Positions 166-49,089 of a stretch of DNA of 50,944 bases are shown in pieces. The notes below the pieces were generated by a model. It did not search any database and had not been told where the DNA came from. It saw nothing but the letters and a program-made list of their open reading frames with translations. The translations under genes were made by a program, and so were the position numbers. The DNA is from Draconibacterium orientale. GTDB lineage: Bacteria; Bacteroidota; Bacteroidia; Bacteroidales; JAADGE01. Position 1 is the first letter of the stretch. Every line of letters begins with the position of its first letter. Location of the stretch: assembly GCA_020721645.1 (NCBI GenBank), contig DYMH01000005.1:1-50944 (forward strand), in the 5' to 3' direction.

Positions 166-840
166 ATGAAAGAAATCTTTGAATCGTCATTTTCCGGTAT
201 CAACTTGATTCCCACCATACTGTTGGTTTTAGTTATTTTGTATTGGATAACCGTTTTTCTTGGACTTTTAGATACAAGCTCACTTGATGTCGATATTGAT
301 TCGCACGCACATCTCGATTTCGATAACGATAACGATTTCGATACTGACTCGCACCTACAAGGACCAGAAGGCATTGCCGGAGGGCCGAATTTCATTGTAA
401 AAACCCTCCTGTTTTTCAATATCGGAAAAATTCCGTTCATGATACTGTTCAGTTTCATTGCTTTGCCGCTTTGGGTGATTTCACTTCTGATAAATCATAT
501 TTTACACAACAATTCAATCATAGTTTCAATGCTTTTTCTATTACCGGAAATTGTTGTAAGTATGATGATTGCAAAAATTATTACAATACCATTGGTTTCA
601 GTATTTCAAAAAATGGATGTCGAAACCGGCCAATTTGAAGATTTTACCGGAAAAACCGCCGTCGTTAAAATAGCTGTCGATAAAGATCGAGACGGACAAG
701 TTGAACTCACTCGCAACAACTCCAACGTTTTGCTCATTGCCCGCTCTGTAAATGAAACCATAAACGCAGGAGAACACGTTTTAATTATCGAATACAACAA
801 AGAAGAAAAATATTACACTGTCGAACCCTTCAAAATCTAA
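166..840 (+). CDS. NfeD-like membrane protein (YqiJ-type), partner of flotillin
   Basis: N-terminal multi-TM segment, acidic D/N-rich linker and C-terminal OB-fold-like soluble domain (TGKTAVVKIAVDKDRDGQVEL...). Its stop lies 4 bp from the flotillin start. The NfeD-SPFH pairing is a well-established operon pattern. Confidence 0.65.
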   Translation: MKEIFESSFSGINLIPTILLVLVILYWITVFLGLLDTSSLDVDIDSHAHLDFDNDNDFDTDSHLQGPEGIAGGPNFIVKTLLFFNIGKIPFMILFSFIALPLWVISLLINHILHNNSIIVSMLFLLPEIVVSMMIAKIITIPLVSVFQKMDVETGQFEDFTGKTAVVKIAVDKDRDGQVELTRNNSNVLLIARSVNETINAGEHVLIIEYNKEEKYYTVEPFKI

Positions 841-844
841 AACC

Positions 845-3283
845 ATGATTGGAACACTTTTATTTATCGGAAACATTTTAAGCATTGCAGCTATTATTGT
901 CGCAGTCTTTCTGTTAGGTTTCATTGCTTTAATTGTAAAATGGTACAAAAAACCAATTCACGGCAAAGCATTAGTCAGAACCGGACAAGGCGGAACAAAA
1001 ATTACTTTTGAAAAAGGATTTTTTGTTATTCCTGTTCTGCACCGATTGGAAATTATGGACATCACCCTAAAGAACATGACCATTTCTCGTCTCGGAGTCG
1101 ATGGCTTAATTTGCAAAGATAATATTCGTGCCGATATCAAAGTCGCTTTCTTTGTGCGTGTCAATAACACATTGGAAGATGCTAAAAATGTGGCTTTTGC
1201 AATAGGATGCGAACGCGCTTCGGCAAAAGAAACTCTCGAAGGACTTTTTGAATCCAAATTTTCGGAAGCTTTGAAAACCGTCGGAAAACGATTCGATTTC
1301 GCCGATTTATACAACCAACGCGACGAATTTAAAAAAGAAATCCTCACACTTCTGGGCAGAAATCTTAACGGATATTTGCTCGACGATTGTGCAATTGATT
1401 ATCTGGAACAAACACCTCTCGAATCGATGAAAGAACGCAATATTTTGGATGCCGAAGGGATAAAAAAGATCATCGAACTCACATCGACACAACAAATTAA
1501 AGCAAATTTTATTGAGAATGAAAAACAAAAAACAATAAAAAAACAAGATGTTGAAGCACGCGAAATAATTCTCACTTACGAACGTCAATTAGCCGAAAAA
1601 GAAGAAACACAAAAACGTGAAATCGCCAATATCAAAGACAAAGAAAAAGCATTGACAATAAAAGTAACTGAAGAACAACGCGAAATCAGCGAAAAATCAA
1701 GAATATCAGCCCAAGAAGCAATCGAAATCGCACAACAAAACAAAGAACGACAGGTGATTGTTGCCACTTGGAACAAAGACAAAACCGACAAAGAAGAACT
1801 GGAAAAGACTGAAAAAGCGAAGATGCTACAAGTAACGGAACGCGAAAAAGTGATTTCTCTCGCTCAAATTGAAAAAGATAAGGCAATTGAAATCGAAAAA
1901 GCAAAAATTCAGGAAATTATCCGCGACCGAGTCAAAGTTCAAAAAGACGTGGTGATTGAAGAACAAAAAATAAAAGACACCGAAGAATTTGCCACTGCCG
2001 ACCGCGAAAAACGAGTTGCAATTACAAATGCCGAAATGATAGCCGAACAAGCACTCGTTAAACAAATAAAAAACGCCGAAGCAAATAGAAAGGCGACTGA
2101 AATTGACGGAGAAGCCTCCAGAATTGCCGCCGAATACAAAGCAAAACAAAAAATCATAGAAGCCGAAGCTGCATTTTCGGCATCGGGCAAAGAAGCTGAC
2201 GCTATAAAAGTTCTTGCAGAAGCCGAAGCCGCCAAAGAATCGGCACAAGGAAAATCTGAAGCACAAGTGATCGAAGCAAAGGCAATTGCTAATTTAAAAG
2301 ACGGCGAAACAAATGCCAAAATTATTGAAATGGAAGCAATAGCCGAAGCCAAAGGAATTGAAGCAAAAGCAATTGCAAAATCGAAAGAAATCACACTTGT
2401 TACAACAGCCGAAGCAGAAGCTCATTTACAAACCGGTCAAGCAGAAGCAAAAGTTATTGAAACAAAAGGATTTGCCGAAGCCGAAGCTCTCAACAAAAAA
2501 GGCGAAGCCGAAGCTAATATTCTGAAACAAAGAGGATTGTCCGAAGCTCATATTATCAATGTAAAAGCTGAAGCAAACGAAAAACAAGGTTTAGCCGAAG
2601 CAAAAGTAATACAAGAAAAACTGCTCGCCGAAGCAAAAGGTATCGACGAAAAAGCCGTTGCTATGAAAAAACTCGAAGGCATGGGCAAAGAACACGAAGA
2701 ATTTAAACTGAAACTGCAAAAAGATAAGGACGTTGAATTGGCTCAAATCAATATCTGGAAAGACATTGCAGATGCTCAGGCAACCGTAATTTCAGAAGCT
2801 TTGAAATCTGCAAAAATCGACATTGTGGGCGGCGAAACAATGTTCTTCGATAAAATTATCGGCTCAATTACACGAGGAAAAAGCTTGGATAATTTAGTCG
2901 GAAATTCGGAAGTCCTCACTTCGGTAAAAGACCGATTTCTGCCCAATAAAAAAAATGAAAATAGCATTTCACAAAACGAAAAAATATCAACAAAAAGAAT
3001 TGAAACACCAAAAATTGAAGAAAAAAATAATTCTGAATTTTTAGATGATCAAGATGATTTGGACGAAAAACTCAGTAAAACCGAGCAGAAAATCAAAAAT
3101 ATCATCGACCAATACAAATTTCTAATAGACGGCGTTACCGATATGACAATAATTGATGTGCTTGAAACCTTGATTTCTAAATTACCCGATGTGGACACTC
3201 GTAACATTGTTAAAGGATTGATTCATAAAGCAAAAAATGCAGGAATCGGCGATTTATTAGTTAAAAGTTTGGGAATAAAATGA
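845..3283 (+). CDS. Flotillin-like SPFH/band-7 protein (YqiK family), 812 aa with long Ala/Glu-rich coiled-coil tail
   Basis: N-terminal TM helix followed by an SPFH domain (PVLHRLEIMDITLKNMTISRLGVDGLICKDNIRADIKVAFFVRV). Extended EA-repeat coiled coil typical of flotillins. Cotranscribed with the NfeD-like gene. Confidence 0.85.
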   Translation: MIGTLLFIGNILSIAAIIVAVFLLGFIALIVKWYKKPIHGKALVRTGQGGTKITFEKGFFVIPVLHRLEIMDITLKNMTISRLGVDGLICKDNIRADIKVAFFVRVNNTLEDAKNVAFAIGCERASAKETLEGLFESKFSEALKTVGKRFDFADLYNQRDEFKKEILTLLGRNLNGYLLDDCAIDYLEQTPLESMKERNILDAEGIKKIIELTSTQQIKANFIENEKQKTIKKQDVEAREIILTYERQLAEKEETQKREIANIKDKEKALTIKVTEEQREISEKSRISAQEAIEIAQQNKERQVIVATWNKDKTDKEELEKTEKAKMLQVTEREKVISLAQIEKDKAIEIEKAKIQEIIRDRVKVQKDVVIEEQKIKDTEEFATADREKRVAITNAEMIAEQALVKQIKNAEANRKATEIDGEASRIAAEYKAKQKIIEAEAAFSASGKEADAIKVLAEAEAAKESAQGKSEAQVIEAKAIANLKDGETNAKIIEMEAIAEAKGIEAKAIAKSKEITLVTTAEAEAHLQTGQAEAKVIETKGFAEAEALNKKGEAEANILKQRGLSEAHIINVKAEANEKQGLAEAKVIQEKLLAEAKGIDEKAVAMKKLEGMGKEHEEFKLKLQKDKDVELAQINIWKDIADAQATVISEALKSAKIDIVGGETMFFDKIIGSITRGKSLDNLVGNSEVLTSVKDRFLPNKKNENSISQNEKISTKRIETPKIEEKNNSEFLDDQDDLDEKLSKTEQKIKNIIDQYKFLIDGVTDMTIIDVLETLISKLPDVDTRNIVKGLIHKAKNAGIGDLLVKSLGIK

Positions 3284-3292
3284 TTTTTTTTT

Positions 3293-3330
3293 GCGAGAAA
3301 CATATAAATCAGTTTCTCGCATTTTTTTTA
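3293..3330 (+). terminator. Intrinsic terminator after the flotillin gene
   Basis: Hairpin gcgagaaac-N10-gtttctcgc followed by an 8-nt T-run. Confidence 0.6.
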
Positions 3331-3376
3331 TTCTTTACAAATCATTTATAAATTCCAATTTTAAAGCATCACTAAA

Positions 3377-6300
3377 ATGCCTGAAAATACGGAAACAGTT
3401 ACTTCCGAAAATAACACAAAAATCGAACTCGAAGCCGGAACCTACGAAATTATTCGTAAGCGTTTGGATAAATACGGCAACGAGCTAAGCGACAAATTTA
3501 GTTTGCTCAACAACGAACGCCGAAAAGTTTTCGGCTCTGCCGATGCTGCACTCATTGCAACCGAACGAATCATCACCGAAAACAACTGCATTCCGTCCGA
3601 TATGCAACAAGTGGGCAATATGTTCATTTTCGCTTACAATGTTTCGGTTCGCAAAAAAGAAATTGCCGCAGATGATGTTTTTAGTATCTATTCCTACCAA
3701 AATCACACATTTAAAAAAGAACCGCTCGATTTAATTTCCGATACAAGTTTTTTAACAGATTTTGCCGATTTATACAAATATCGCGAAAGCACACGATTTG
3801 TTAAATTTTCAGTTATCGGAATACATTTGTTCATGCTCTTTCGCACCGGAAGCGGTGATACCGACATCAAAGCCTTCAAATGGATAATCGACGGCAATCG
3901 ACTTCGATATGTTGATAACCGAAGCGACCACGAATTTCGTTTCCCCGCACAACACGAATTTTCGTGGACCAAAGCCACACGCGAAATGCACATCACGGGA
4001 AAGCACCCGCATGTTTCAATCGAAAACATTCTTTTTGTGGAAACAGTCGGAGGCGATTTAACAATTAAAGCCGAAAACAATACCGAAACCGGCAGCGGCG
4101 TATATGCCGAACCTGTTGAAAATGCCGACCAAACGCTCGACGATGCCGAATTTTTCTATTCCGTTCTCGGAAATATTATCATTCTAAAAATTCGTCCGTT
4201 CAAAGAAATAGATTACCGCTACATTGTTTACAGCTCCAAAACGAAAAGTGCCGTTCGTATTGATGCAATCAAAGACGCTTGCGTTTTATTGCCCGACAAT
4301 CAGGGAATTATTTTCTCGAACGGATATTATTTGCAAACCGGCGATTTTAAGTTTTTTGAAAATAATTTAAAAAACCTTGTTTTTGAAAAACGAATCGACT
4401 CGCCCAACGGCGAAGACTATATTTACACGTTTTACGAGCGAAACACCCGCTCTTATGTCTTGTTGAAATATAATTTGATAGAACAAAAACTCGACACCCC
4501 GATTATTTGCAACGGATTTTCGATTTTCGAGAACGGAGAAATGTGCAATTTTCGCAGCGACGGCGAGGCAAAGAAACACCATGTAGTTCAAATTTGGCGT
4601 ACAACGTTTTACAGTGCCGATTACGACACGGTTGTCGATAAAACATCGTATCTTTTTAAAATCGGAAACAAAGAACTCGTTAAAGGAATTGCCGAATGTC
4701 GCGAGGTGATTACTTTGCTTGCCAAAGACGATTCTTACACCAATTTGTATATCGAATTGGTACGAAAAACCTCGCAAATTCTCGACAATTATTATTGGAT
4801 TTCGCGAACGGAAACTTTTGAACTCAATATTTCGATTTCGGCAGTGAAAGAAGCCGCCGCTTCGGCAATAGATGAATACGAAAAGGTTGCTAAAATCAAA
4901 AAAAACACCTTACTGCAAACACAAAAAATTACCGGCGAAGCCGACAAACTGTTTGCGGAAATCAAGAACAAAAGTCTTCAAAATATCGAAGATTTTGTTC
5001 AATTGCTTTCACGATTGCGAATTATCAGAGGCGAATTAATTTCTTTAATACAATTAAGATATATCAATATTGAATCGGTTGAAAAATACGAAAAATCTGC
5101 CGCCGATTACAACAACCTGCTTTCGGAATCGTGCGTGGCTTTTTTGCTCGAAGAAACCGCCCTGAATCCGTACAAAGAAAAAGTAAATTTGATTCGAGAA
5201 AATACCGAAAAAATATCAAAAGTTACCGATGCCGATGATCTTGAAAAAGAAATCGGAAAAGTATCTTCGGAACTCGAAATGTTGATAGAAATTGTCAGCA
5301 ATCTGAAAATAAAAGATGCCGTTCAAACAGCCAAAATTATCGACACAATTTCGTCTATATATTCCAATTTCAACAAGATAAAAGCCGATTTGAAACGCAA
5401 AAGAGATGAGCTTTTTTTGCTTGAAGGAAAAGCCGAATTTTCATCGCAAATCAAACTCATTGGGCAAGCCGTTGTAAATTATCTTGATTTGTGTGATGCT
5501 CCCGAAAAAACCGATGAATATCTCACCAAACTGTTGGTTCAAATCGAAGAATTGGAAGGAAAATTTACCGAATTCGACGAATTTGTGAACGAAATAGGCA
5601 TCAAACGCGAAGAAATTCTCGATGCCTTTGAACAACGAAAAATTCAACTCACCGAAAAACGCAGCAAACGCACCGACACCCTCAAACAATCTGCCGAACG
5701 CATTCTTAAAGCCGTTTCCGGACGATTGGCAAAACTCGGATCCGAATCGGAAATCAACGGATATTTTGCTTCGGATATCATGGTAGATAAGGTTCGCGAC
5801 ATCGTTAAAGAATTGTTCGAACTGGGCGACAATGTGAAAGCCGATGATATCCAAAGCAAGTTGAAAACCGCCAAAGAAGATGCTTTTCGGCAGTTGCGCG
5901 ACAAAGTCGATTTATTTGTCGAAGGTGAAGATGTCATTAAATTCGGTCGTCATAATTTCACGGTAAATAAGCAACCGCTGGCATTGACTATGGTCAATCG
6001 CGGCGAAGATATGTTTATTCATCTTTCCGGAACCGGATTTTACGAACGTGTAGAAAACGAAGAATTTTATCAATTGCACGAATTTTGGGCTCAAAATATC
6101 ATTTCGGAAAACGACACCGTCTATCGCTCCGAATATTTGGCATATAAATTTTTAAACGAACAAATAGAAAATAACGAGTCTAAAATCGACGAACTTTTCA
6201 AAGCCGAAGACGCGAAACTTGCCGAAATGCTGCAAAATTTCATGTCGGTTCGTTATTCCGAAGGATACGAAAAGGGCGTTCACGACAGCGATGCTTTGGT

Positions 6301-8266
6301 AATTCTAAAATCATTAATCGAAATTCGTAAAAATGCCGATTTACTTCGATACTCTTCAAAGTCGAGAGCCGCCGCCGAATTATGGTTCAAAGAATTTGCA
6401 CCCAAAGAACAAAAAGAACTTTTGCATGCCCGCCTTCAAGGGATTGGTGCAATTTTAGAATCATTTCCCGGAAGCAATAACTTTAATGACATAAAAAAAC
6501 AGATTGAAAATCAGATTCTTGATTTCACAGTAAAAACAAATATTTTTTCCGGTGATATTGCCGAAGAAGCCGCAGAATATCTGTTTGCCGAATTAACAAG
6601 ATCCGATGTTTTTGTTTTAAACAGCATCGCTTCAAAATTATACACCGATTTCAACGATTTTCTGAAAATCAACTCAAAAACAACATCTTTTAAAACATCA
6701 ACCGACAAACTTAAATCAAATCCGGAAGCCCGATATTTATTGATTAGAGAATGGATAAAAGCCTTCGCCTCCATATCCGACGACAAATCGGTTTTATCAT
6801 ATATCGATGAAGTTGCCGTTACTGTTTTCACAAAATCCTTTGAATCAAAACGCTGTTTAGATGTTACATTGCAAGTGGATTTGGTCGGATTGGAAGGAAA
6901 TCACTCATTAATATCTGATAAAAAATATCATCTGAATTTCAACGAATTTATGCGTCGTTTGAAATATTTCGACACTCAAAAAGTAGTCGGATACAAGAAA
7001 TACACCGAACTTAAAAAACAACTCACCGAAAGTTTTGAAAACGAATTGCGATTGAACGAATTTAAACCTCGCGTAATGAGTTCTTTTGTGCGCAATCGTT
7101 TGATTGATAAAGTATATTTGCCGCTTATCGGAACCAATTTGGCAAAACAAATAGGTACGGCAGGCGAACAAAAGCGAACGGATTTGATGGGTATGTTGTT
7201 GCTGATTTCGCCGCCGGGTTACGGAAAAACTACTTTGATGGAATACATCGCCAATCGGCTCGGAATTATTTTCATTAAAATCAACGGTCCGGCTTTGGGG
7301 CACAGCGTTACTTCGGTCGATCCGCAGGAAGCTCCGAACGCCACCGCGCGCGAGGAATTGATGAAATTGAATTTGGCATTCGAAATCGGCGATAATGTAA
7401 TGATTTATGTTGATGATATTCAACATTGTCATCCCGAATTTTTGCAAAAATTCATCTCTTTGGCAGATGCTCAACGCAAGATAGAAGGAGTTTACAAAGG
7501 TCGAACGAAAACCTACGATTTCAGAGGGAAAAAAGTGTGTATCATCATGGCGGGAAATCCATATACCGAAAGCGGCGATGTGTTCAAAATTCCGGATATG
7601 CTCGCAAACCGTGCCGACATCTATAATTTGGGTGATATTTTGGGCGACAGTCGTGAAGAGTTTTTGATGAGTTATATCGAAAACAGCCTTACATCGAACA
7701 CTGTTTTGAATCAATTGAGCGGAAAAAGCCGAAACGATGTTTACACTTTGATTGATATTGCACAAAACGGACAAAAAGAAGGCATTCAGTATGAAGCAAA
7801 TCACAGCTCGGAAGAAATTAAAGAATACTTGTCGGTTTTAGAGAAACTGCTGAAAATTCGCGAAATTGTCAATACCGTCAACCAACAATACATCTATTCT
7901 GCGGGGCAAGCCGAAGCATACCGAATCGAACCGCCCTTTAAACTTCAAGGCTCGTATCGCGACATGAACAAATTGTCGGAAAAAGTAATGCCTATTTTGA
8001 ACGATGCCGAATTGGAAACACTGATTCTGTCGCACTACGAAAACGAATCGCAAACGCTCACCTCCGGAGCCGAAGCCAATTTATTGAAATTCAAAAAAAT
8101 GACCAAGCGAATCACCGCCGAAGAAGACCAACGGTTTTCGGAAATTATTGCGATATATCAGAAAAACAAACAAACGGATTCCGGAAGCCCAATTGCCTTG
8201 ATTTCCAAGCAAATGGGAGCAATATCACAGGGTTTGGACGGAATTGTTGATGCATTGAAAAAATAA
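3377..8266 (+). CDS. Giant (1629 aa) coiled-coil protein with C-terminal MoxR/AAA_5-type P-loop ATPase domain; N-terminal about 1200 aa of unknown function
   Basis: Uninterrupted 4.9-kb ORF. Walker A LLLISPPGYGKTTL, Walker B IYVDDIQ and an AAA_5/MoxR-like sensor region VCIIMAGNPYTESGDVFKIPDMLANRADIY. Beta-rich N-terminal domain and long predicted coiled coils in the middle. Confidence 0.8.
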   Translation: MPENTETVTSENNTKIELEAGTYEIIRKRLDKYGNELSDKFSLLNNERRKVFGSADAALIATERIITENNCIPSDMQQVGNMFIFAYNVSVRKKEIAADDVFSIYSYQNHTFKKEPLDLISDTSFLTDFADLYKYRESTRFVKFSVIGIHLFMLFRTGSGDTDIKAFKWIIDGNRLRYVDNRSDHEFRFPAQHEFSWTKATREMHITGKHPHVSIENILFVETVGGDLTIKAENNTETGSGVYAEPVENADQTLDDAEFFYSVLGNIIILKIRPFKEIDYRYIVYSSKTKSAVRIDAIKDACVLLPDNQGIIFSNGYYLQTGDFKFFENNLKNLVFEKRIDSPNGEDYIYTFYERNTRSYVLLKYNLIEQKLDTPIICNGFSIFENGEMCNFRSDGEAKKHHVVQIWRTTFYSADYDTVVDKTSYLFKIGNKELVKGIAECREVITLLAKDDSYTNLYIELVRKTSQILDNYYWISRTETFELNISISAVKEAAASAIDEYEKVAKIKKNTLLQTQKITGEADKLFAEIKNKSLQNIEDFVQLLSRLRIIRGELISLIQLRYINIESVEKYEKSAADYNNLLSESCVAFLLEETALNPYKEKVNLIRENTEKISKVTDADDLEKEIGKVSSELEMLIEIVSNLKIKDAVQTAKIIDTISSIYSNFNKIKADLKRKRDELFLLEGKAEFSSQIKLIGQAVVNYLDLCDAPEKTDEYLTKLLVQIEELEGKFTEFDEFVNEIGIKREEILDAFEQRKIQLTEKRSKRTDTLKQSAERILKAVSGRLAKLGSESEINGYFASDIMVDKVRDIVKELFELGDNVKADDIQSKLKTAKEDAFRQLRDKVDLFVEGEDVIKFGRHNFTVNKQPLALTMVNRGEDMFIHLSGTGFYERVENEEFYQLHEFWAQNIISENDTVYRSEYLAYKFLNEQIENNESKIDELFKAEDAKLAEMLQNFMSVRYSEGYEKGVHDSDALVILKSLIEIRKNADLLRYSSKSRAAAELWFKEFAPKEQKELLHARLQGIGAILESFPGSNNFNDIKKQIENQILDFTVKTNIFSGDIAEEAAEYLFAELTRSDVFVLNSIASKLYTDFNDFLKINSKTTSFKTSTDKLKSNPEARYLLIREWIKAFASISDDKSVLSYIDEVAVTVFTKSFESKRCLDVTLQVDLVGLEGNHSLISDKKYHLNFNEFMRRLKYFDTQKVVGYKKYTELKKQLTESFENELRLNEFKPRVMSSFVRNRLIDKVYLPLIGTNLAKQIGTAGEQKRTDLMGMLLLISPPGYGKTTLMEYIANRLGIIFIKINGPALGHSVTSVDPQEAPNATAREELMKLNLAFEIGDNVMIYVDDIQHCHPEFLQKFISLADAQRKIEGVYKGRTKTYDFRGKKVCIIMAGNPYTESGDVFKIPDMLANRADIYNLGDILGDSREEFLMSYIENSLTSNTVLNQLSGKSRNDVYTLIDIAQNGQKEGIQYEANHSSEEIKEYLSVLEKLLKIREIVNTVNQQYIYSAGQAEAYRIEPPFKLQGSYRDMNKLSEKVMPILNDAELETLILSHYENESQTLTSGAEANLLKFKKMTKRITAEEDQRFSEIIAIYQKNKQTDSGSPIALISKQMGAISQGLDGIVDALKK

Positions 8267-8349
8267 TCTGAAAACATAGATTATGAAATCTTTCTCGCAT
8301 TGGGTTTTGTATATTTTATAAATTTAAAAAACATAAAACTTGTTTAGCA

Positions 8350-8544
8350 ATGAAAAAACTTATTTTCCTTTTCTTCGCCGCCTCAATGTTAGCTTGTGGA
8401 AATTCGCCCTGCGAAAAGAAAACCTGCAAAGATTTTAAAACACAAAAAGAGGCACAGAAAACCTATGAGTCTGATAAAGATTGTTACAAAAATCTCGACC
8501 GCGATAACGATGGCAGTGCCTGCGAAGATTTACCGAAGGAATAA
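8350..8544 (+). CDS. Small secreted lipoprotein with Excalibur-type Ca-binding motif
   Basis: Signal peptide ending in a lipobox-like LAC and a DRDNDGSACE (DxDxDGxxCE) motif. Followed by an intrinsic terminator. Confidence 0.6.
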   Translation: MKKLIFLFFAASMLACGNSPCEKKTCKDFKTQKEAQKTYESDKDCYKNLDRDNDGSACEDLPKE

Positions 8545-8548
8545 TTAA

Positions 8549-8574
8549 AGTCGGCAAAAATGCCGATTTTTTTA
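8549..8574 (+). terminator. Intrinsic terminator
   Basis: tcggca-aaaa-tgccga hairpin followed by a 7-nt T-run. Confidence 0.6.
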
Positions 8575-8812
8575 AGTGTCAATTTTTATTTTAATAATTC
8601 TGCTCAGTTATCTTTTAATTGTTACCCGGAATTATTAGGACGGATATTTGAGTAATTGGCAAATAATTATGATAACCTGAAAATTTGGCGACATTTGAAA
8701 TTTGTATATGCTGAGCACGGTCATAAATTATGTTTTACGATTTGTTTAACTATTTGATATTAAAAGCAATCAGCATAACAGCACATCAAAAAATCAACCA
8801 ATAAAAGTATAA

Positions 8813-8955
8813 TATTGTTAATGCTTATCCGCAAAGTCCCCTTAAAAAATTTCATTTATAAAACAGTAATTTTTTATACCGCTAATATGTTTATTGAATG
8901 TATGTTGCAAACTCTCCCTTAACAAAGGGGACCGGGGGTATTTTTATTCAACTTA
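8813..8955. repeat. About 145-bp intergenic repeat element, family 1, copy A. An inverted copy lies at 41641-41794.
   Basis: Near-identical over most of its length to the reverse complement of 41641-41794 (taatgcttatccgcaaagtcccc ... tgtatgttgcaaactc[t/c]ccctt..aagggg ... gggggtatttttattcaa). Contains an internal imperfect hairpin (ctcccttaacaaagggga). Confidence 0.7.
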
Positions 8956-9171
8956 TTAATGTCGGAAGTTTCGCAGTTTGTATATACGAGTCCGGTCTAA
9001 AAAGTATAAAGTTTGAAAGTGAAAAGTGCAAAATCGTTCATAATCAGTAATTTATGTAAAGATGTAAATTTGACTTAAAGTCCTTATTTTCAGTATTATA
9101 ACTTTATAAACTTTCTTCTTTATGACTTTTTAAACTGAACTCATTAATCGTTTTCCAAATTTGAACAATAA

Positions 9172-9207
9172 TAAAAAAAGTCGGCATTTCGCCGACTTTT
9201 TTTTTAT
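9172..9207. terminator. Bidirectional intrinsic terminator downstream of the EF-G paralog
   Basis: A-run, agtcggc-atttc-gccgact hairpin, then a 9-nt T-run. Confidence 0.65.
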
Positions 9208-9218
9208 TCAATTATCAA

Positions 9219-11375
9219 TTACTCTTCTCCCAATTCAGCTTCATGTTCTTTAATTAATTTTTCCTGAATATCGGTCGGCACCTGAGCATATTCGGCAAAA
9301 GCCATCTCGTATGTCGCACGTCCGCCGGTCAAAGAGCTCAGTGTCGTTGAATATTTGTTGAGTTCAGCCAAAGGAATTCGAGCTTTTATCACTTCAAAAC
9401 CTTTAATACTGCTCATTCCCATAATAATTGCACGTCTTCCCTGCAAATCACTCATCACATCTCCCATACGATCTCCCGGAACCATCACATCAACATCGTA
9501 AACAGGTTCCAATAATTTAGGCGAAGCTTTTTTAAAGGCTTCCGAAAAAGCTTTTGCGCCCGCCAATTTAAACGAAATTTCGTTGGAATCAACATCGTGC
9601 ATTTTTCCAAAATAAACACTTACACGAATATCACGGGCATAAGAACCTGTTAATGGACCAAATTCCATTTTCTCATTGATTCCTTTAATAATTGCCGGCA
9701 TGTAGCTGGCATCAATAACGCCACCGACAATACAATTATAAAAAATAAATTTTCCGCCCCACGGTAATTCAAATTCTTTGGTATCTCGAACCGAAACTAC
9801 ATATTCTTGATTGTTAATTTTAAACACTTTGGGTGCCGGTTTGTCATCGGCATAAGGCTCTATTATTAAATGAACTTCACCAAACTGTCCGGCACCGCCC
9901 GATTGTTTTTTATGGCGATAATCGGCTTGTGAAGGTTTGGTAATGGTTTCGCGGTACGGAATTTTCGGGGCAATAAATTCAGCGGCAATTTTAAATTCAT
10001 GGTCCAAGTACCATTTCAAAGTATTCAGGTGGTGTTCGCCCTGTCCGTGGATAATGAGTTGTTTTAATTCTTTTGAATATTCGAGTATCCATGTCGGGTC
10101 TTCATCATGCAATTTATGCAAAATTTCACCCAGTTTTTCATCATCGGCTTCGCTAACAGCTTTTATGGCTGTTCTGTATTTTGGGTTTGGAAATTCAAGA
10201 GGAGGAAATTTGAACTCTGTACCTTTTTCGCATAAAGTATGTTGAGCTTTTACCGTTTTTAATTTAATGGTAGCACCAATGTCGCCAGCCACAAGTTTTT
10301 CAACTTTGGTTCGTATTTTCCCATTCACTGCAAAAAGTTGAGACAGTCGCTCTTTGGCTTCTTTATTCATGTTGATTAAATCATCGCCTTCGGCTATTTC
10401 GCCCGACATGACTTTAAAGAACAAGATTTCGCCCAAATGTTGTTCAATGGTATTTTTAAAAATATAAACAGATTTTTTCCCCTTTGAATCGCATTTTACA
10501 TTTTTCCCGTCAGCTGTAACAGCTTCCGGCATCAAATCGGGCGATGGAACTGTGTTTGCAAGAAAATCGAGCAAGCGGCGTGTCCCGAAATTACTTCGGG
10601 CTGCTGTGCAGAAAATCGGAAACATTCCGCCGGTAATCAATCCTTTGGTAATGCCTTTTCGCATTTCTTCCTCAGTCAAGCTGCCTTTTTCAAAGAAAAT
10701 CTCCATTAAATTTTCATCATTTTCTGCAGCCGACTCGATCAACGCATTATGCAATTCAGTGGCTCGTTCTTTTTCCGATTCCGGTATGTCTGTTATCTTT
10801 GGTTCGGCTCCCGCTTTATCCCATGTGTACATTTTCATGGTTATCACATCGATGATTGAATTAAACCCAATTCCTTGATTAACAGGAAATTGAATGATTG
10901 CTATTTTATTGCTTAAGCGTTCTTTGATTTCGTCAACGGTCTTTTCAAAATTTGTCTTTTCGTGGTCCAAATGATTCACAACCATGATAACAGGAACATG
11001 ATGTTTTTCTGTCAAACGCCATGCCGATTCTGTTCCCACTTCAATACCATTTTGTGCATTTAGAACCAATACCGCAGCATCACTGACACGTAATCCCGAA
11101 ACAACGCCTCCCACAAAATCACCGGCACCGGGCGTATCTATTATATTTATTTTTTTATCAGCCCACAATGTGTGCAAAACTGTCGATGATATCGAACCAC
11201 CTTGTTCCTGTTCAATCACCCTGTAATCGGATACTGTGGTTTTCAAAGCTATATCGCCGATTCGGCTTATCAGTCCGCCTTCAAAAATCATGGCTTCAGC
11301 CAATGTCGTTTTGCCGGAACCTGCATTTCCTATAAAAGATAAATTCCTAATTTCATTCGTTTGATAGACTTTCAT
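9219..11375 (-). CDS. EF-G-like translational GTPase paralog (718 aa) with degenerate switch II
   Basis: Full five-domain EF-G architecture. G1 GNAGSGKTT. G3 is DTPGAGDF instead of the canonical DTPGHVDF. G4 is NHLD instead of NKxD. Divergent from rpsL. Confidence 0.8.
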   Translation of the reverse strand: MKVYQTNEIRNLSFIGNAGSGKTTLAEAMIFEGGLISRIGDIALKTTVSDYRVIEQEQGGSISSTVLHTLWADKKINIIDTPGAGDFVGGVVSGLRVSDAAVLVLNAQNGIEVGTESAWRLTEKHHVPVIMVVNHLDHEKTNFEKTVDEIKERLSNKIAIIQFPVNQGIGFNSIIDVITMKMYTWDKAGAEPKITDIPESEKERATELHNALIESAAENDENLMEIFFEKGSLTEEEMRKGITKGLITGGMFPIFCTAARSNFGTRRLLDFLANTVPSPDLMPEAVTADGKNVKCDSKGKKSVYIFKNTIEQHLGEILFFKVMSGEIAEGDDLINMNKEAKERLSQLFAVNGKIRTKVEKLVAGDIGATIKLKTVKAQHTLCEKGTEFKFPPLEFPNPKYRTAIKAVSEADDEKLGEILHKLHDEDPTWILEYSKELKQLIIHGQGEHHLNTLKWYLDHEFKIAAEFIAPKIPYRETITKPSQADYRHKKQSGGAGQFGEVHLIIEPYADDKPAPKVFKINNQEYVVSVRDTKEFELPWGGKFIFYNCIVGGVIDASYMPAIIKGINEKMEFGPLTGSYARDIRVSVYFGKMHDVDSNEISFKLAGAKAFSEAFKKASPKLLEPVYDVDVMVPGDRMGDVMSDLQGRRAIIMGMSSIKGFEVIKARIPLAELNKYSTTLSSLTGGRATYEMAFAEYAQVPTDIQEKLIKEHEAELGEE

Positions 11376-11841
11376 TTTGATTGTTAATTAAATTGGATTT
11401 TAGTATTTAAGGCTGTAAAATTTCTCTTTTTTGTCTGATATTTTTCGACGGACTGCAAATTTAAAAAAAAATAATTAAGATTTATATCGGGAATTAATAA
11501 AATGTTAAGAAATTAATATGTTGTAAAACAGTAATTTATATCCTGTTTTTACGAGCATACTTAATGCAAGATAATTATTTGTTCCGAATTTCAAACATTT
11601 AATTAAATATTTACAACAAGAGAAAATAAATTTTTTTTAATTGATTTTTTAACAGACTTTTGCAACTCTTAAAAAAACAAAAAATCATATTATATATAAG
11701 GTGTATTTTCATGTTTGAGATACTTTACATTTAAAGTCGAAACAAGTAAGAAAATGCAGGATATTACGGAGTGATTTTATATTTAATTGAATATCAATAG
11801 TATGTATTGATTTTAAATAAAAACTAAAAATAAAATCAAAA

Positions 11842-11882
11842 ACTATTGCTCAAAAAGAAATATATTCTACCTTTGCAAACCG
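11842..11882 (+). promoter_or_regulatory. Candidate Bacteroidetes-type promoter for the rpsL operon
   Basis: TAccTTTG at 11868-11875 matches the Bacteroides -7 consensus TAnnTTTG about 35 nt upstream of the rpsL ATG, in an AT-rich region. The -33 TTTG is only weakly matched. Confidence 0.3.
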
Positions 11883-11910
11883 AATTTAATAAATATATTT
11901 TACGACAGAT

Positions 11911-12324
11911 ATGCCTACAATTCAACAATTAGTCAGAAAGGGACGCAAGAAAATTGAGAGTAAAAGCAAGTCGCCTGCGTTGGCTTCAAGCCCGCAACGA
12001 CGCGGTGTTTGTGTGAGAGTTTACACAACAACTCCCAAGAAACCGAACTCTGCCATGAGAAAAGTTGCTCGGGTTCGATTAACTAACGGAAAAGAAGTCA
12101 ATGCTTACATTCCCGGCGAAGGACATAACCTTCAGGAACACTCCATTGTGTTGGTCCGCGGAGGCAGAGTGAAAGACTTACCCGGAGTTCGCTATCACCT
12201 TGTCAGAGGAACATTAGATTCTCAGGGTGTGGACGGCAGAAAACAAAGACGTTCAAAATACGGCACAAAACGCCCAAAGAAAACAGACCCAAAGAAAACA
12301 GACCCCAAAAGCAAAAAAAAGTAA
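11911..12324 (+). CDS. rpsL: 30S ribosomal protein S12
   Basis: [12 protein letters not shown]...[17 protein letters not shown], with an extra Lys-rich C-terminal tail ([15 protein letters not shown]). Confidence 0.95.
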
Positions 12325-12332
12325 GATAAGTC

Positions 12333-12809
12333 ATGAGAAAATCGAAACCCAAAAAGAGGATTCTTTTGCCGGATCCAAAATTTAATGACACTTTAGTTAC
12401 CCGTTTTGTCAATGATATGATGATTAGCGGTAAGAAAAATTTATCATTGAAAATTTTTTATGATGCTCTACAACTTGTAGAGAACAGAACAAAAAACGCC
12501 GAAAAATCTCCTCTCGAAATTTGGAAAAAAGCCTTAGAAAATATCACACCACAAGTCGAAGTTAAAAGTCGTCGTGTCGGGGGTGCAACATTTCAGGTGC
12601 CGATGGAAGTTCGTGCAGACCGTAAAGTTTCTATCAGCATAAAAAACATGATATTGTACGCCAGAAAACGAGGCGGAAAAGCAATGTCCGACAAATTGGC
12701 TGCCGAAATTGTTGCTGCATATAACGAAGAAGGCGGCGCATTCAAAAAGAAAGAAGATACTCACAGAATGGCAGATGCCAATAAAGCATTCGCACATTTC
12801 CGATTCTAA
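12333..12809 (+). CDS. rpsG: 30S ribosomal protein S7
   Basis: Conserved S7 sequence. Position between rpsL and fusA. Confidence 0.95.
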
Positions 12810-12829
12810 AAAAAAGGATTCCATAATTC

Positions 12830-14944
12830 ATGGCAACACCGCTACAACATACGAGAAACATTGGCATAATGGCACATATCGACGCCGGTAAAACGACGAC
12901 GACTGAGCGTATCTTGTATTATACCGGTATTACCCATAAACTTGGCGAAGTACACGATGGTGCTGCCACCATGGATTGGATGATTCAAGAACAAGAACGA
13001 GGCATTACCATTACTTCTGCAGCAACGACAACCTATTGGAAATTCAAAGATATTGATTATAAAATTAACATCATTGACACTCCGGGACACGTCGATTTTA
13101 CCGTTGAAGTAGAGCGTTCGCTCAGAGTTCTCGATGGAGCTGTTGCAATTTTTTGTGCCGTCGGCGGTGTTGAACCTCAATCGGAAACCGTTTGGCGACA
13201 AGCCGACAAATACAATGTACCTCGCATTGCATTCGTGAACAAAATGGACCGTACCGGAGCCGATTTTTTTAAAGTTCTGACTCAAATTGAAAAAAGGTTA
13301 GGGAGCAATCCAATACCAATGCAAATACCAATCGGAGCAGAAGATAATTTTACGGGAGTTATCGACCTTATCGAAAGAAAAGCAGTTGTTTGGAAAGAAG
13401 ATGATACTTTGGGTGTCAATTACGAAATACAACAGATACCGGAAGATTATAAAGAATTAGCAGAAGAATGGCGCGAAAAATTGGTCGAAGCTGTTATCGA
13501 AACCGATGATGATTTATTACACCGTTTTTTCGAAAACAGAGACAACATCACCGTTGAAGAATTTATGTCGGCAGCTCGAAAATGCGTCATTACAAGAAAA
13601 ATTGTTCCCGTATTTTGCGGAGCAGCTTTCAAAAATAAAGGCATTCAGCGTTTGCTCGATGCAATTACGCAACTTCTCCCATCGCCCTTAGATATTGAGG
13701 CTGCAAAAGGGACAGAACCGCATACCGAAAAAGAAATATTAAGACACCCCAATGCCGATGAACCTTTTGCTGCATTAGCTTTTAAAATAGCAACCGATAA
13801 ATTTGTCGGACGTTTGGCTTATTTACGAGTTTATTCGGGCGTTCTCAAAGCAGGTTCTTACGTTTTCAATCCCCGTACAAAAAAGAAAGAAAGAATTTCA
13901 CATCTCTACCAAATGCACGCCAACAAGCAAATTTCGATAGAAGAAATTTCAGCAGGTGATATTTGCGGTGCTGTTGGTTTTAAAGATATACGCACAGGTG
14001 ATACACTGTGTGCCGAAAATAAACAAATTGTTCTGGAATCCATGACATTTCCCGAGCCGGTCATCGGAATTTCAGTGGAACCTAAAACTCAAAACGATAT
14101 TGATAAATTAAGCATCGCTTTATCAAAACTCTCCGAAGAAGACCCAACATTTGTTGTAAAAGTTGATGATGAAACAGGGCAAACCATTATCTCAGGAATG
14201 GGCGAATTGCACTTAGAAATATTAGTAGACCGACTGAAACGCGAGTTCAATGTTGAATGTAACCAAGGAAAACCACAAGTTACATACAAAGAGTCCATAA
14301 CAAGTGTAGTAGAATACCGAGAATTATTCAAAAAACAATCAGGAGGGAAAGGTAAATTTGCTGATATAACTGTCAGAGTTTCACCCTGCGACACTCAAAT
14401 CAAAGGTCTTCAATTTATTGATGCAACAAAAGGCGGCGTAATTCCAAAAGAATATATCCCTGCAATAAAAAAAGGCTTTGAACAAGCCATGAAAAACGGA
14501 CCTGTGGCAGGTTTTCAAATGGACAGTTTAAAAGTAGAATTACTCGATGGAACATTTCACCCTGTTGATTCAGATTCTTTATCATTCGAAATTGCAGCAA
14601 AATTAGCTTTTAAAAATGCAAGCATACAAGCGGGAGCTGTTCTGTTAGAACCGATTATGAATCTTGAAGTTATTACAGCCGATGAATATGTTGGCGATGT
14701 AATATCCGACCTCAACAGACGACGCAGCCACATTGGAGGAACCGAAGAAAGAGGAGGAGCGCAAGTTGTTAAAGCCAAAGTCCCATTAGCCGAACAATTC
14801 GGATACGTAACTGTTCTCAGGTCCATTACATCAGGACGCGGTTCGGCTACGATGGAGTTTTCACATTTTCAACAAGTTACTGAAAATATATCCAAAAGTA
14901 TTATTGAAAAAATTAAAGGAAAATTTACATTTATAAACATATAA
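12830..14944 (+). CDS. fusA: Elongation factor G
   Basis: [15 protein letters not shown] and DTPGHVDF motifs, 704 aa, in the canonical str-operon position. Confidence 0.95.
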
Positions 14945-33763: not shown

Positions 33764-36700
33764 TTAGACGAATCTTAAACCAACAACCGTTATATCATCG
33801 CGTTGTTCTTCGCTTATTTGAAAGTCGGACAATGCTTTTTCGATTCCGTTGAGTTGCTCTTTCATCGGGAGTTCGGCGTGTTTATTTATTAATTCTGTAA
33901 ATTTATCGAAACCGAATTTTTCGCGTTCTTTGTTGTTTTGGTCGGCAAATCCGTCGCTGCTAAGGTAGAGAATATCGTTTTGGGCAGCTTCAAATTCTAA
34001 ATCCGAAAAAACAAGCTCTTTGTTTCGTGACAGAAATCCGCCGATATGTTTTCGACTGCCTTTGAGTCGTTCTAATGTTTTTGTTTCCGATTTATAGTAT
34101 AATAAACTGATTTTTGCTCCCGAAAAGACAATTTTATACAAATTTTCGGTATTTTTCTCGATTCTGCAAAGAGCAATATCCATTCCATCGTTATTATCGC
34201 CGGTTTCTTGATTGAGCGATAACCGAACACCTTGGTCGAGGGCTACCAAAATTTGCGAGGGTTGATAAATGTGTTCGTCTTTCACAATTTCGTTTAGTAA
34301 CCTACTGCCTATCAGCGACATAAATGCACCGGGGACACCATGCCCCGTGCAATCGACTGTGGCAAAAAACAGATATTCTTTCCCTTTTTCATACTCCGAT
34401 TTAAAAAACCAATAGAAATCGCCTGAAACGATATTTCGGGGTTTGTACAAAATAAAATTCTCGAAATAGGAATCGAGTTGTTTTTTTTGTGGAAGTATCG
34501 ACTGTTGAATGGTTTTAGCATATTTTATACTGCCCATTATCAGTTCGTTCTGCATTCGGACTGTTTCGTTTTGTTCGCCGAGTTGAACAATAATTTCAGC
34601 TAGAGCATCAGACTGGCTTTGTATTTCTTCTTTTTGCACTTCAAGTTCTTCATTTTTTTGTTCTATTTCTTGGGTACGTTCTTTTACCAATTGTTCAAGA
34701 TGTATTTTTTGTGCTTTGATTCGGTTTATCCTGCTTTTCAGAAACGAATAGATTAAACCCACCACACCTACGAACACCAAGATACGAAACCACCATTCTG
34801 CCCAAAAAGGAGGCTTTACGATAATATCAATTTCTGTCCCCAGTAAATTCCATACCCCATCACTGTTCGAGCCTTTCACCTTAAAAATATAATGACCTGG
34901 GTCGAGATTGGTGTAAGTCGCCGTTCTGTTTTTTGCATCGGTATAAATCCAATCCTTGTTGAACCCCTCCAATTTATAAGCGTATTTGTTGTTTTCGGGT
35001 ACGCTGAAATGAAGAGCCGAAAATTCAAAAGAAATAACTTTATCGTTAAAATTGAGTATAATTTTTTTTGTTTCTGTGATACTTTGTTTTAAAAGCGAAT
35101 TATAGCCAATTTTAATTGAGGTATTGAACATTTTGAAATCGGTTATCACAACCGGCGGAAAATATGCATTATCTTGGATATTTGCAGGATAAAACGCATT
35201 GAGACCGTTGATTCCTCCGAAAAACAGCTCGCCCGAAGACGATTTGCAGGCTGCTCCCCAAAAAAATTCGTTGCTTTGCAAGCCGTCACTTTCATCGTAG
35301 TTTGTAAATTTTTCGGTTTTGACTTCAAATTTCGACAAGCCTTTGTTGGTACTCAGCCACAAATTGCCGTTATTTTCATCGAAAACTGCATAAACCACAT
35401 TGTTCGACAAACCATTGCTTTGTGTATAGTGTTTGAAAATATGTTTATTATTTTGAATTTCAATTTTATTCAAGCCACTGCCGAATGTTCCTGCCCAAAT
35501 GACATTATTTTTGTCGATATACAGTGAAATGATGCGGTTGTCGTTCAAACTTGCCGAATCTTTTTCGTTGTGTGTAAACAATTTAGATTGATAATTTCCA
35601 TTATCGGTTTTATATATTTTGTGCAGTCCGCCCCACGAACCAACCCATATATTTCCTTGCCTGTCTTCTTGCATCGCCCCTTGAATATTTCCTTTCTCGG
35701 TGTTCGGAAAATTGATAATGTGCAAAAATGTGTTTGATTTTTTATCGAAAACATCAACACCGCCTGCTGTTCCAATCCAGATTTTGTGGTCGGAACTTTC
35801 AAATATTTTTTGTATCGTATTGCTGATGAGTCCCGAATTTGATTGTATTAAATGCTCAAATTGAACGATTTTTGTTTTATCGGTTTCCGAAAAAATTGCT
35901 TTCTGAATACCACCGTTCCAAGTTCCAATCCACAAAATGCCTTCACTGTCGCGAAGAATTGATGAAACGGTATTGTCGTAGAGTGTTTTTTCATCGTAAG
36001 GAATTTTTTGGTAGCGGTCTATTTTGTTGGTTTTTCGGTCGAATCGAACCAAACCGCCTTCCACATAGCCAATCCACACAATATCATTGCTTTCGGCAAA
36101 AACAGAACGAATTGTTTTATCAGGCAACGAGTTGTTGCTGAGTGAATTGCTGTATTTGTAGAGTTTAAATTTTTTCGATAAAATATCGAATTTATTCACA
36201 CCGCGTTCCCATGTGCCAATCCAAATAATTCCTGCCGCATCTTTGTACAGTGAAGCTATGTTGTTGTGACTTAGACTTTTTGTATCGAAACTGTTGTGCT
36301 GATAGGTGTAAAACGTTGTTGTTCTTGGGTCGAAAAGGCTTACGCCATCGCTGGTTCCAATCCACACAAATCCCTGAGAATCTTCCATTATTTTTAGTAC
36401 CACATTATTGCACAATCCGTTTGGTTGATTTGCATGATAGGCGTATTTTTTAAATGTTTGGGTTTTCGGTTCAAAAATGTTAAGTCCTTCGCGGCTTCCA
36501 ACCCAAATTTGCCCGCGACTGTCTTCATAAACACAGGGCAAAAAATCGTTCGATAAACTGTTATTATCTTTTGGGTTGTGTTTGAAATGTGTAAATTTTT
36601 CGCTACTCGGATCGAACATGTCTAATCCGCCATTTGTGGCTAACCACAACATTCCTTTTTTATCGATAACAATATCGTTTACTTCGTTTTGACACAAACT

Positions 36701-37243
36701 GTTTTCATTATTTCGGTTATGTTGATAGGATTTGAATGTTTTGTTTTTTTTATCGAATCTGTTCAGTCCTCCGCCTTCGGTTCCAATCCACAGAATGCCG
36801 TGTTTATCTTCGGCAATGCAGCGAATGCTATTGTTACTCAGGCTATTGATGCTGTTTGGCTCGTGGATAAAGCGGGAAAAAGTTTCGGAATTGCGATGAA
36901 ACAGATTTAAACCGTTGCCAAATGTACCTACAACCAATACCGAATCCTTGGTTTCATAAATCGCTTTGATGATGTTGCCCGAAATGGACAAACTGTCGTT
37001 TTTAGAGTTTTTATAGATTTTAAAATTATAACCGTCGAAACGGTTCAGCCCATCGTGCGTGCCGAGCCAAATAAATCCTTTGTGGTCCTGACAAATTGCA
37101 AATACGGAGCTTTGCGACAAGCCTTGTTCTATGGAAATATGTTCAAATTGAACATTAAAATCTTGTGCTTTTACATTTTGCCGGAACAAAAAAAAATGAA
37201 AAATAATGCTGATAAAAATTAAAAATTTCAATTTTTGGAACAT
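33764..37243 (-). CDS. Sensor phosphatase: signal peptide, periplasmic two-component-regulator beta-propeller repeats with Y_Y_Y domain, one TM helix, coiled coil, and a C-terminal PP2C/SpoIIE Ser phosphatase. Start chosen at the signal-peptide Met; the track ORF extends to 37333.
   Basis: More than 12 Reg_prop-like repeats (...WIGT..GL..FD...). Y_Y_Y motif GHYIFKVKGSNSDGVW. TM WWFRILVFVGVVGLIYSFL. PP2C motifs SGDFYWFF, DCTGHGVPGAFMS and SSDGFADQ. Confidence 0.85.
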   Translation of the reverse strand: MFQKLKFLIFISIIFHFFLFRQNVKAQDFNVQFEHISIEQGLSQSSVFAICQDHKGFIWLGTHDGLNRFDGYNFKIYKNSKNDSLSISGNIIKAIYETKDSVLVVGTFGNGLNLFHRNSETFSRFIHEPNSINSLSNNSIRCIAEDKHGILWIGTEGGGLNRFDKKNKTFKSYQHNRNNENSLCQNEVNDIVIDKKGMLWLATNGGLDMFDPSSEKFTHFKHNPKDNNSLSNDFLPCVYEDSRGQIWVGSREGLNIFEPKTQTFKKYAYHANQPNGLCNNVVLKIMEDSQGFVWIGTSDGVSLFDPRTTTFYTYQHNSFDTKSLSHNNIASLYKDAAGIIWIGTWERGVNKFDILSKKFKLYKYSNSLSNNSLPDKTIRSVFAESNDIVWIGYVEGGLVRFDRKTNKIDRYQKIPYDEKTLYDNTVSSILRDSEGILWIGTWNGGIQKAIFSETDKTKIVQFEHLIQSNSGLISNTIQKIFESSDHKIWIGTAGGVDVFDKKSNTFLHIINFPNTEKGNIQGAMQEDRQGNIWVGSWGGLHKIYKTDNGNYQSKLFTHNEKDSASLNDNRIISLYIDKNNVIWAGTFGSGLNKIEIQNNKHIFKHYTQSNGLSNNVVYAVFDENNGNLWLSTNKGLSKFEVKTEKFTNYDESDGLQSNEFFWGAACKSSSGELFFGGINGLNAFYPANIQDNAYFPPVVITDFKMFNTSIKIGYNSLLKQSITETKKIILNFNDKVISFEFSALHFSVPENNKYAYKLEGFNKDWIYTDAKNRTATYTNLDPGHYIFKVKGSNSDGVWNLLGTEIDIIVKPPFWAEWWFRILVFVGVVGLIYSFLKSRINRIKAQKIHLEQLVKERTQEIEQKNEELEVQKEEIQSQSDALAEIIVQLGEQNETVRMQNELIMGSIKYAKTIQQSILPQKKQLDSYFENFILYKPRNIVSGDFYWFFKSEYEKGKEYLFFATVDCTGHGVPGAFMSLIGSRLLNEIVKDEHIYQPSQILVALDQGVRLSLNQETGDNNDGMDIALCRIEKNTENLYKIVFSGAKISLLYYKSETKTLERLKGSRKHIGGFLSRNKELVFSDLEFEAAQNDILYLSSDGFADQNNKEREKFGFDKFTELINKHAELPMKEQLNGIEKALSDFQISEEQRDDITVVGLRFV

Positions 37244-37559
37244 AAGCTTCGTATTTGGATTTTTTAGAGTAATCGCAACCTGTTTGAACAGAGAGTAAAA
37301 TCCTTCGCAAACGTTTGAATTGTATCCTATCAAAAAAAAGATATTTACAAAGGGTTTATCGTAAATTTACTTTTATTTTTTAAAGATAAAAATTATCTTA
37401 ACAATAAATTAATATGTTTATTATGAAATGGTAATATTTTCAATTGAATCATGACGAATTCATATTTCTCGTGCAATTCAAAATATATATTTATTAAACA
37501 ATATTTATTTTTTTTGATACGATATTTTTGTGCAATTTTGTGATATAACTTAAAAGAAT

Positions 37560-46163: not shown

Positions 46164-46575
46164 AATATTTTTTTTAGTGGTTCGATAATATGTGAAAATA
46201 TGAAAATTAGAAAACAGGTAAAATGTTGAATTACAATAAATTAATAAATAATGCTTGTTTTTTATATTATTGATTATGTGATAAATATAGGTTTGTAACT
46301 TAGTAATTTTTAATTGGGTGAAAAGAAAAAAAGTCATGTTCTTTCTTTCTATACTTCGTTATATTTTTATATCTAACAGAATATTAGTAAATTACAGATA
46401 TTTTGTCTCGCAAAGACGCTAATTATTCAAGATCAACGTCTTTGCGTGCTTTGCAACTTAGCGAAAAAAAAAATGCCGAACTATTATGGTTCTTCGTCAT
46501 TTTATGTGGGTAAATTTTAAAGATAAGTATGTAATTATTTGAAATTATGGTGTTTAGAACTTATTTTTAAGAATA

Positions 46576-47152: not shown

Positions 47153-47192
47153 ATTATCAATTATCAATTATCAATTATCAATTATCAATTAG
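47153..47192. repeat. Perfect heptanucleotide tandem repeat (aattatc)x5 plus a partial unit, in the hydA 3' UTR
   Basis: Direct reading. The units begin 2 bp after the terminator T-run and end at the hydA stop codon. Confidence 0.9.
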
Positions 47193-48976: not shown

Positions 48977-49089
48977 TTTATTAGTTTTTAGATATGAGAT
49001 TTGAGACACAAGACGCAAGATATGATTTCGGAAATTATTTAATTTTACAGTAATATTTCTAAAATCTAAAATCTTGATACTTTTGTCTG

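Follow-up and report, generated by a model that had tools for sequence, protein, structure and literature searches.

Can a protein built like elongation factor G (EF-G) still move the ribosome when it has lost the residue on which GTP hydrolysis depends? The question is raised by an open reading frame (ORF) located at 9219–11375, on the minus strand, of contig DYMH01000005.1, analysed here over its whole stretch of 50,944 nt (the window). In translational GTPases, it is the switch II His that holds the hydrolytic water in place against the sarcin-ricin loop. An earlier note on this DNA had remarked that this His is replaced in the product of the ORF, and had suggested that the protein could regulate or sequester instead of translocating. 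We find that the gene, fusA2, belongs to the Bacteroidota-type EF-G2 and is an ordinary member of this published, structurally solved and database-curated family, hence an already known one. Its product is very probably a starvation-specific second elongation factor, coexisting with the canonical EF-G1 that is encoded in the same window.

The altered motifs of EF-G2

The ORF starts with ATG and encodes 718 amino acids (aa), in which Pfam recognizes the five domains of EF-G (GTP_EFTU, EF-G_D2/GTP_EFTU_D2, EFG_III, EFG_IV and EFG_C). The complete domain layout and the good P-loop announced by the earlier note are thus both present. The P-loop (G1) reads GNAGSGKT at aa 16–23 (11307–11330, minus strand like all the motifs of this gene, whose positions were checked by translating sub-intervals): the GxxxxGKT core is intact, while the sequence no longer conforms to AHxDxGKT, the signature of translational GTPases. 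Switch II (G3) reads DTPGA at aa 80–84 (11124–11138), with Ala84, codon 11124–11126, at the position of the catalytic His. G4 reads NHLD at aa 134–137 (10965–10976), which keeps the Asn and the Asp and changes the Lys to His.

The canonical EF-G1 of the window, fusA, at 12830–14944 on the plus strand, carries the motifs DTPGH and NKMD, scores 1025.5 bits with the model TIGR00484 (cutoff 659), and provides a direct reference for these substitutions. BLASTP aligns EF-G2 with it over the full length at 33% identity, and the region from G1 to G4 is ungapped: DTPGA(84)GDF faces DTPGH(87)VDF, and NHLD(134–137) faces NKMD. Neither a shifted switch II motif nor a substitute His nearby was found in this alignment or in the translation. 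The replacement of the His by Ala and the non-canonical G4, as read in the earlier note, are therefore both correct; and EF-G2 deviates further than this note had listed, by its P-loop GNAGSGKT, by Ser61 in place of the Thr of G2, and by some 29 residues inserted into domain IV.

This insertion (aa 511–541, DKPAPKVFKINNQEYVVSVRDTKEFELPWGG, 9753–9845, minus strand) is specific to EF-G2 and absent from the canonical EF-G1, in which it corresponds to gaps of 22 and 6 residues by BLASTP and to about 29 by MAFFT. It is common to the family and collinear with the same region of the EF-G2 of Bacteroides thetaiotaomicron (B. theta), and conservation of its motif WGGKL reaches 90% or more. Han et al., 2023, reportedly describe a region of 26 residues specific to EF-G2, which would be essential for protein synthesis and for ribosome release, and which would also be responsible for the lack of GTPase activity. 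The insertion at aa 511–541 fits this description. Domain IV also carries, at its tip, the two loops that extend into the decoding centre (KKQSGGAGQFGEVH and GKMHDVDSNEISF); throughout the family their conservation is 90% or more, under the forms KKQSGGaGQFGEVH and GKMHpVDSNEISF. These tip loops and the domain architecture are what EF-G2 shares with the EF-G1 of the window; NKMD, the absence of the insertion, and the nature of a GTP-hydrolysing translocase are what sets EF-G1 apart.

Conservation of the substitutions

A sequencing error at one codon would have been a simple explanation for Ala84, and the earlier note had kept this possibility in mind. Three independent assemblies (JGI 3300000228, NCBI GCA_022737625.1 and Logan SRR1560064) have contigs that code for exactly the same 718 aa, so that Ala84 is not such an error; the homologues, moreover, also lack the His. 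We compared two sets of relatives. The first one, the family alignment, contains the 120 best homologues (61–100% identity, mostly from metagenome-assembled genomes (MAGs) and isolates of Bacteroidales/Bacteroidia) together with the protein of the window, 121 sequences in all, plus the EF-G1 of the window. The second one contains the loci of 80 GTDB species representatives (L001–L080), among which are Bacteroides, Parabacteroides, Tannerellaceae, Muribaculaceae, Paludibacteraceae and Prolixibacteraceae.

The catalytic His was found in none of the 121 family proteins (Ala in 86, Leu in 16, Ser in 15, Met in 3 and Pro in 1) and in none of the 80 GTDB loci (Ser in 57, Ala in 17 and Met in 6). The column of the G4 Lys behaves similarly: the 121 proteins have His (62), Gln (52) or rare others, never Lys, and the GTDB loci display NQLD (64), NHLD (13) and, once each, NHLN, NQVD and NKLD, so that the Lys is missing from 200 of the 201 sequences. 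Across the family Ser stands in place of the Thr of G2, and the P-loop follows the pattern G[NS][AS]G[SL]GKT (e.g. GNAGSGKTT, GNAGLGKTT, GSAGSGKTT). The supposition of a clade conserved in Bacteroidota is thus borne out, and the trait extends to an uncultured Bacteroidota at 58% identity from the B. theta protein, with a residue that varies—Ala, Ser, Leu or Met—at the position of the His. The precise switch II of the window, DTPGAGDF, is confined to its own lineage among the 121 proteins; this Ala/Gly version might handle the nucleotide differently from the Ser version of B. theta.

The loss of several catalytic residues does resemble what the decay of a paralogue would leave, or what an assembly artefact could mimic. 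Against this, the ORF is intact over its 718 aa, recurs unchanged in the three assemblies and aligns without gaps with an orthologue at 58% identity; and relatives of EF-G2 are encoded in more than 580 GTDB species genomes, with motifs strongly conserved elsewhere in the protein. Decay or artefact, which we regard as next to inconceivable, is excluded by these conservation data.

Membership of the EF-G2 family

EF-G2 passes the model NF058620 ('EFG2_Bacteroid, elongation factor G2'), a curated NCBIfam model of 'exception' type, with 1192.4 bits for a cutoff of 1000, over residues 1–715 of a profile of 717 positions; the canonical EF-G1 of the window reaches only 497.5 bits on this profile. Conversely EF-G2 does not pass the canonical EF-G model TIGR00484 (550.8 bits, cutoff 659.4) nor the model of the Thermus-type EF-G2, NF009377 (448.7 bits, cutoff 890). 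The best match in the PDB is the EF-G2 of B. thetaiotaomicron, BT2167 (7uvp/8dmf, E = 1.8e-288), and the pairwise comparison with it gives 58% identity and 76% similarity with zero gaps across 718 aa.

The molecule name deposited for 7uvp/8dmf is 'Tetracycline resistance protein TetQ'; UniProt also uses the name TetQ, and such a label could mislead automated annotation. Taken literally, it would make the protein of the window a tetracycline ribosomal protection protein. The models of this family (NF012153 and related) are far from passed, with 255.7 bits for tet_protect (cutoff 775) and 110.6 for tet_protect_Q (cutoff 1425); and the true TetM/TetO chains match at E ~1e-38 only, by the G domain alone. 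We give this alternative almost no credit. As the family fails all the protection models, the label looks like an inherited misannotation of the BT2167 product. Membership of the protection proteins, of the Thermus-type EF-G2 and of the canonical EF-G was thus rejected in each case by scores below the cutoff of the model.

The wider kinship of the protein is with the EFG II subfamily, described as a second EF-G copy, quick to evolve and never found without EFG I, in which the G2 motif RGITI is relaxed to xxxSx, and within which a Bacteroidetes sub-subgroup is listed (Margus et al. 2011, PMC3150367). The EF-G2 of the window shares with this subfamily, to which the Thermus thermophilus EF-G2 (PDB 1wdt) belongs, the status of a second copy beside EFG I, the xxxSx form of G2, Gly as first residue of the P-loop and a conserved domain IV; but NKxD is kept in EFG II generally (PMC3150367), whereas loss of the G4 Lys, and of the catalytic His as well, marks the Bacteroidota subgroup.

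This classification also bears on another role, that of a specialist of ribosome recycling working with the ribosome recycling factor (RRF), like the EF-G2 of Borrelia or the mitochondrial EF-G2mt. Other duplicated EF-Gs do divide elongation and recycling between the paralogues, which gives the idea some ground. Such proteins, however, form the spdEFG/mtEFG subfamilies and not EFG II; the PDB entries of mitochondrial EF-G2/RRF2mt are matched at E values of 1e-66 to 1e-69, much weaker than those of canonical EF-G; the canonical EF-G1, which normally does both jobs, is present; and the literature consulted on EF-G2 contained no recycling role for the Bacteroides protein. A recycling specialist is thus very improbable here.

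With its B. theta counterpart, the EF-G2 of the window has in common the length of 718 aa, the five domains, the domain IV insertion and the conserved tip loops; the absence of the switch II His and of the G4 Lys, the Ser of G2 and the Gly-rich P-loop; the coexistence with a canonical fusA; and a palindrome of Cur type upstream of the gene, discussed below. They differ by the switch II (DTPGAGDF here, DCPGSDDF in B. theta), by the G4 (NHLD here, NQLD there) and by the G2 (GGSIS here, YGYSV there), as well as by their hosts, since the member of the window comes from an uncultured metagenome Bacteroidota.

Proposed function

In B. theta, no gene is activated more strongly by BT4338 (Cur) than fusA2: carbon limitation raises it 238-fold and lowers fusA 10-fold; Cur acts on fusA2 through a palindromic operator, and fusA2 is required for gut colonisation (Townsend et al. 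2020, PMC6989115). The control of fusA2 by Cur also holds in B. fragilis, B. ovatus and B. vulgatus. As to the biochemistry, papers that cite the work on this protein say that EF-G2 'catalyzes translocation without GTP hydrolysis' (PMC12775393), that it enables 'GTP-independent translation' (PMC10294740) and that it is an 'experimentally confirmed weak translocase' (PMC12172202); a citing paper also places it in 'slow translocation'. For B. theta this means that translocation is possible without GTP hydrolysis, and that gut Bacteroides have a low-cost mode of translation, required for colonisation.

By orthology with B. theta EF-G2, itself reported to be devoid of GTPase activity, the protein of the window would lack this activity too, would translocate slowly and would be induced by starvation. 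The view of the earlier note that GTP is probably not hydrolysed in the canonical way is supported by what these citing papers report of B. theta EF-G2. The mechanism that we propose, as the best supported, is the following. EF-G2 should still bind a guanine nucleotide, since it has kept the P-loop, the Ser of G2, DxPG and, in G4, both Asn and Asp. It would dock on the ribosome as EF-G does, the conserved tip of domain IV entering the decoding centre, and would then promote mRNA–tRNA translocation slowly, the GTP presumably not being hydrolysed because the catalytic His of switch II is absent. According to Han et al., 2023, the domain IV insertion reportedly contributes to this hydrolysis-free mode as well. 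The outcome would be that a cell short of energy and carbon still makes protein, slowly and at low cost.

The earlier note had suggested a factor that binds the ribosome without translocating, which would sequester or hibernate ribosomes, block the access of EF-G1, or act as a regulator. Some facts go in this direction: several G motifs deviate and there is no catalytic His, an EF-G dead for GTPase could in principle stall on the ribosome, and the orthologue is expressed more strongly as translation slows down. At the opposite, the orthologue is reported by the citing papers to support translocation and protein synthesis, though slowly; and the loops of domain IV that reach the decoding centre, for which mere sequestration has no need, are those that the family has conserved. 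A sequestering or regulatory factor, contradicted by both facts, therefore appears very improbable, and the proposal was not upheld.

Upstream region and expression

Is the starvation control of fusA2 also recognizable in the window? The spacer between fusA2 and the divergent rpsL is 535 bp long (11376–11910) and contains, at 11517–11532, a palindrome resembling the operator of Cur/BT4338 type, ACTGTTTTACAACATA in the orientation of the gene. Its intact core TGTT-N4-AACA, at 11519–11530, precedes the ATG by 155 nt. The palindrome has two mismatches to the published consensus TATGTTnTAnAACATA (PMC6989115), as many as the validated operator of B. theta according to our own count on the published sequence. 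It is the only match with at most two mismatches in the 50.9 kb, where 0.43 are expected; scaled to the 535-bp spacer, the expectation is about 0.005.

The same core was found between −220 and −70 of fusA2 in 66 of the 80 GTDB loci, for a background of 0.006 per 150 nt. The palindrome is thus widespread in Bacteroidales, which would suggest that control of fusA2 by Cur reaches far past the four Bacteroides species of the experiments. In these 66 loci there are 85 core matches, 96–214 nt upstream, and their distances pile up at −116 and −129; we read this as what may be two copies of the core, 13 nt apart, in many loci.

Bacteroidota promoters have a −7 element of consensus TAnnTTTG, and a candidate for it, TAAATTTG, is found at 11456–11463 (minus strand), 88 nt before the ATG; counted from where the operator core starts, it lies 67 nt downstream. 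A scan for sigma-70 promoters was uninformative, with 20 found for 14.4 expected, as could be anticipated for Bacteroidota promoters. On the other side of the gene, an intrinsic terminator (9173–9203, minus strand; a stem of 14 bp with 5 G-C pairs, followed by a T run) begins 16 nt past the stop of fusA2; because this strong terminator directly follows the stop, the gene looks monocistronic. Expression would then probably start from an own promoter, switched on by a Cur (BT4338)-like regulator at 11517–11532, and end at 9173–9203. Neither Rfam, at the gathering thresholds, nor ARAGORN returned any match over the whole window, hence no leader RNA or tRNA near fusA2.

Several points weigh against a starvation-specific elongation factor controlled in this manner. 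The operator match is imperfect, with its two mismatches; at −155 its distance to the ATG is a little greater than the most frequent one in other loci (about −116 to −129); and the closest relatives that we examined (L084–L087) do not have the strict core in front of fusA2. Because the core is missing in these closest relatives, the control of the fusA2 of the window by Cur is plausible but unproven. On the side of the protein, the identity with the characterised EF-G2 is only 58%, and the biochemistry comes from the B. theta orthologue and not from the lineage of the window. The residue at the position of the His is Ala here and Ser in B. theta, in the context DTPG here and DCPG there; these differences leave formal room for a residual or alternative hydrolysis. 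What is attributed to Han et al., 2023, is reported at second hand, through citing papers. Lastly, since the host is an uncultured Bacteroidota from the environment, represented by MAGs, and not a gut Bacteroides, the ecological role may differ.

Placement of fusA2 beside the str operon

The genes rpsL (11911–12324), rpsG and fusA follow each other on the plus strand from 11911 to 14944, with the Pfam labels of S12 and S7 found on the same contig, and rpsL is head-to-head with fusA2. The earlier note had drawn attention to this vicinity of the ribosomal protein operon. It is real in the window; taken as a general feature of fusA2, it does not hold. In B. theta, fusA2 (BT2167) and fusA (BT2729) are unlinked and far apart. 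Among the 80 GTDB loci, only two have an S12 gene within the 4-kb flank of fusA2, at some 3.4–3.9 kb, and 78 have none. Of three close relatives that we looked up, the neighbours upstream of fusA2 are readable in two, the contig of the third (P0003) being too short on this side. In the lineage P0005, whose EF-G2 is 67% identical, fusA2 and rpsL-rpsG-fusA are again back-to-back, with a spacer of 243 bp (L086 and L087); in the lineage P0009 (68%), the neighbours of fusA2 are unrelated. The back-to-back arrangement thus recurs in a minority of lineages and is not a feature of the family. We also observe that P0005 is annotated as a 'Chlorobi bacterium' MAG, that its spacer (4524–4765 in L086, 4759–5000 in L087) is devoid of the strict core of Cur type, and that a LptF/LptG gene follows fusA2 in the lineages P0005 and P0009, not in the window.

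Such an arrangement invites the idea that fusA2 and rpsL-rpsG-fusA share a bidirectional control region, in the lineage of the window and, among its relatives, at least in P0005 (L086/L087). We hold it for unlikely. Should it be true, one regulator responsive to starvation, acting in the 535-bp spacer, could turn EF-G2 on and the str operon, with EF-G1, off at the same time, and the swap of EF-G1 for EF-G2 would be hard-wired. B. theta offers a contrast: the two loci are unlinked there, and the fall in fusA mRNA is independent of Cur.

Other genes in the window

Between fusA2 and the large ATPase gene that precedes it on the map, the interval 8267–9218 (~950 bp) gave no Rfam or tRNA match; its counterpart on homologous contigs has only small called ORFs (35, 50 and 64 aa), the 64-aa one with a weak match to Excalibur. 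The ATPase gene itself (3377–8266, plus strand) encodes 1629 aa; its product has an AAA domain at the C-terminus and also contains DUF7902 and DUF3686 ('ATPase involved in DNA repair', 572 bits). Gene calling on the JGI version of this contig splits the gene into two ORFs, of 974 and 673 aa, that overlap. In the window it is preceded by two co-oriented ORFs, 166–840 and 845–3283 (plus strand; 224 and 812 aa), with no Pfam match. PADLOC detected nothing convincing in the three-gene cluster 166–8266, apart from a marginal match of the AAA part to mad8 (E = 3.5e-4); the cluster may be an uncharacterised ATPase system.

Further along, the gene at 33764–37333 (minus strand) encodes a protein of 1189 aa with beta-propeller repeats (Reg_prop), Y_Y_Y and a C-terminal SpoIIE domain (PP2C phosphatase), and is divergent from the gene of a DUF6272 protein (37560–38642, plus strand); both may form a signalling module of the partner-switching type. 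The gene at 43818–46337 (minus strand) encodes a gingipain-like peptidase of family C25, with a propeptide and the sorting domain Por_Secre_tail of the type IX secretion system (T9SS), which speaks for the window being of Bacteroidota origin. Finally, the large subunit of a [FeFe]-hydrogenase with NuoG-like Fe-S domains, encoded at 47189–49165 (minus strand), suggests that the host is an anaerobe.

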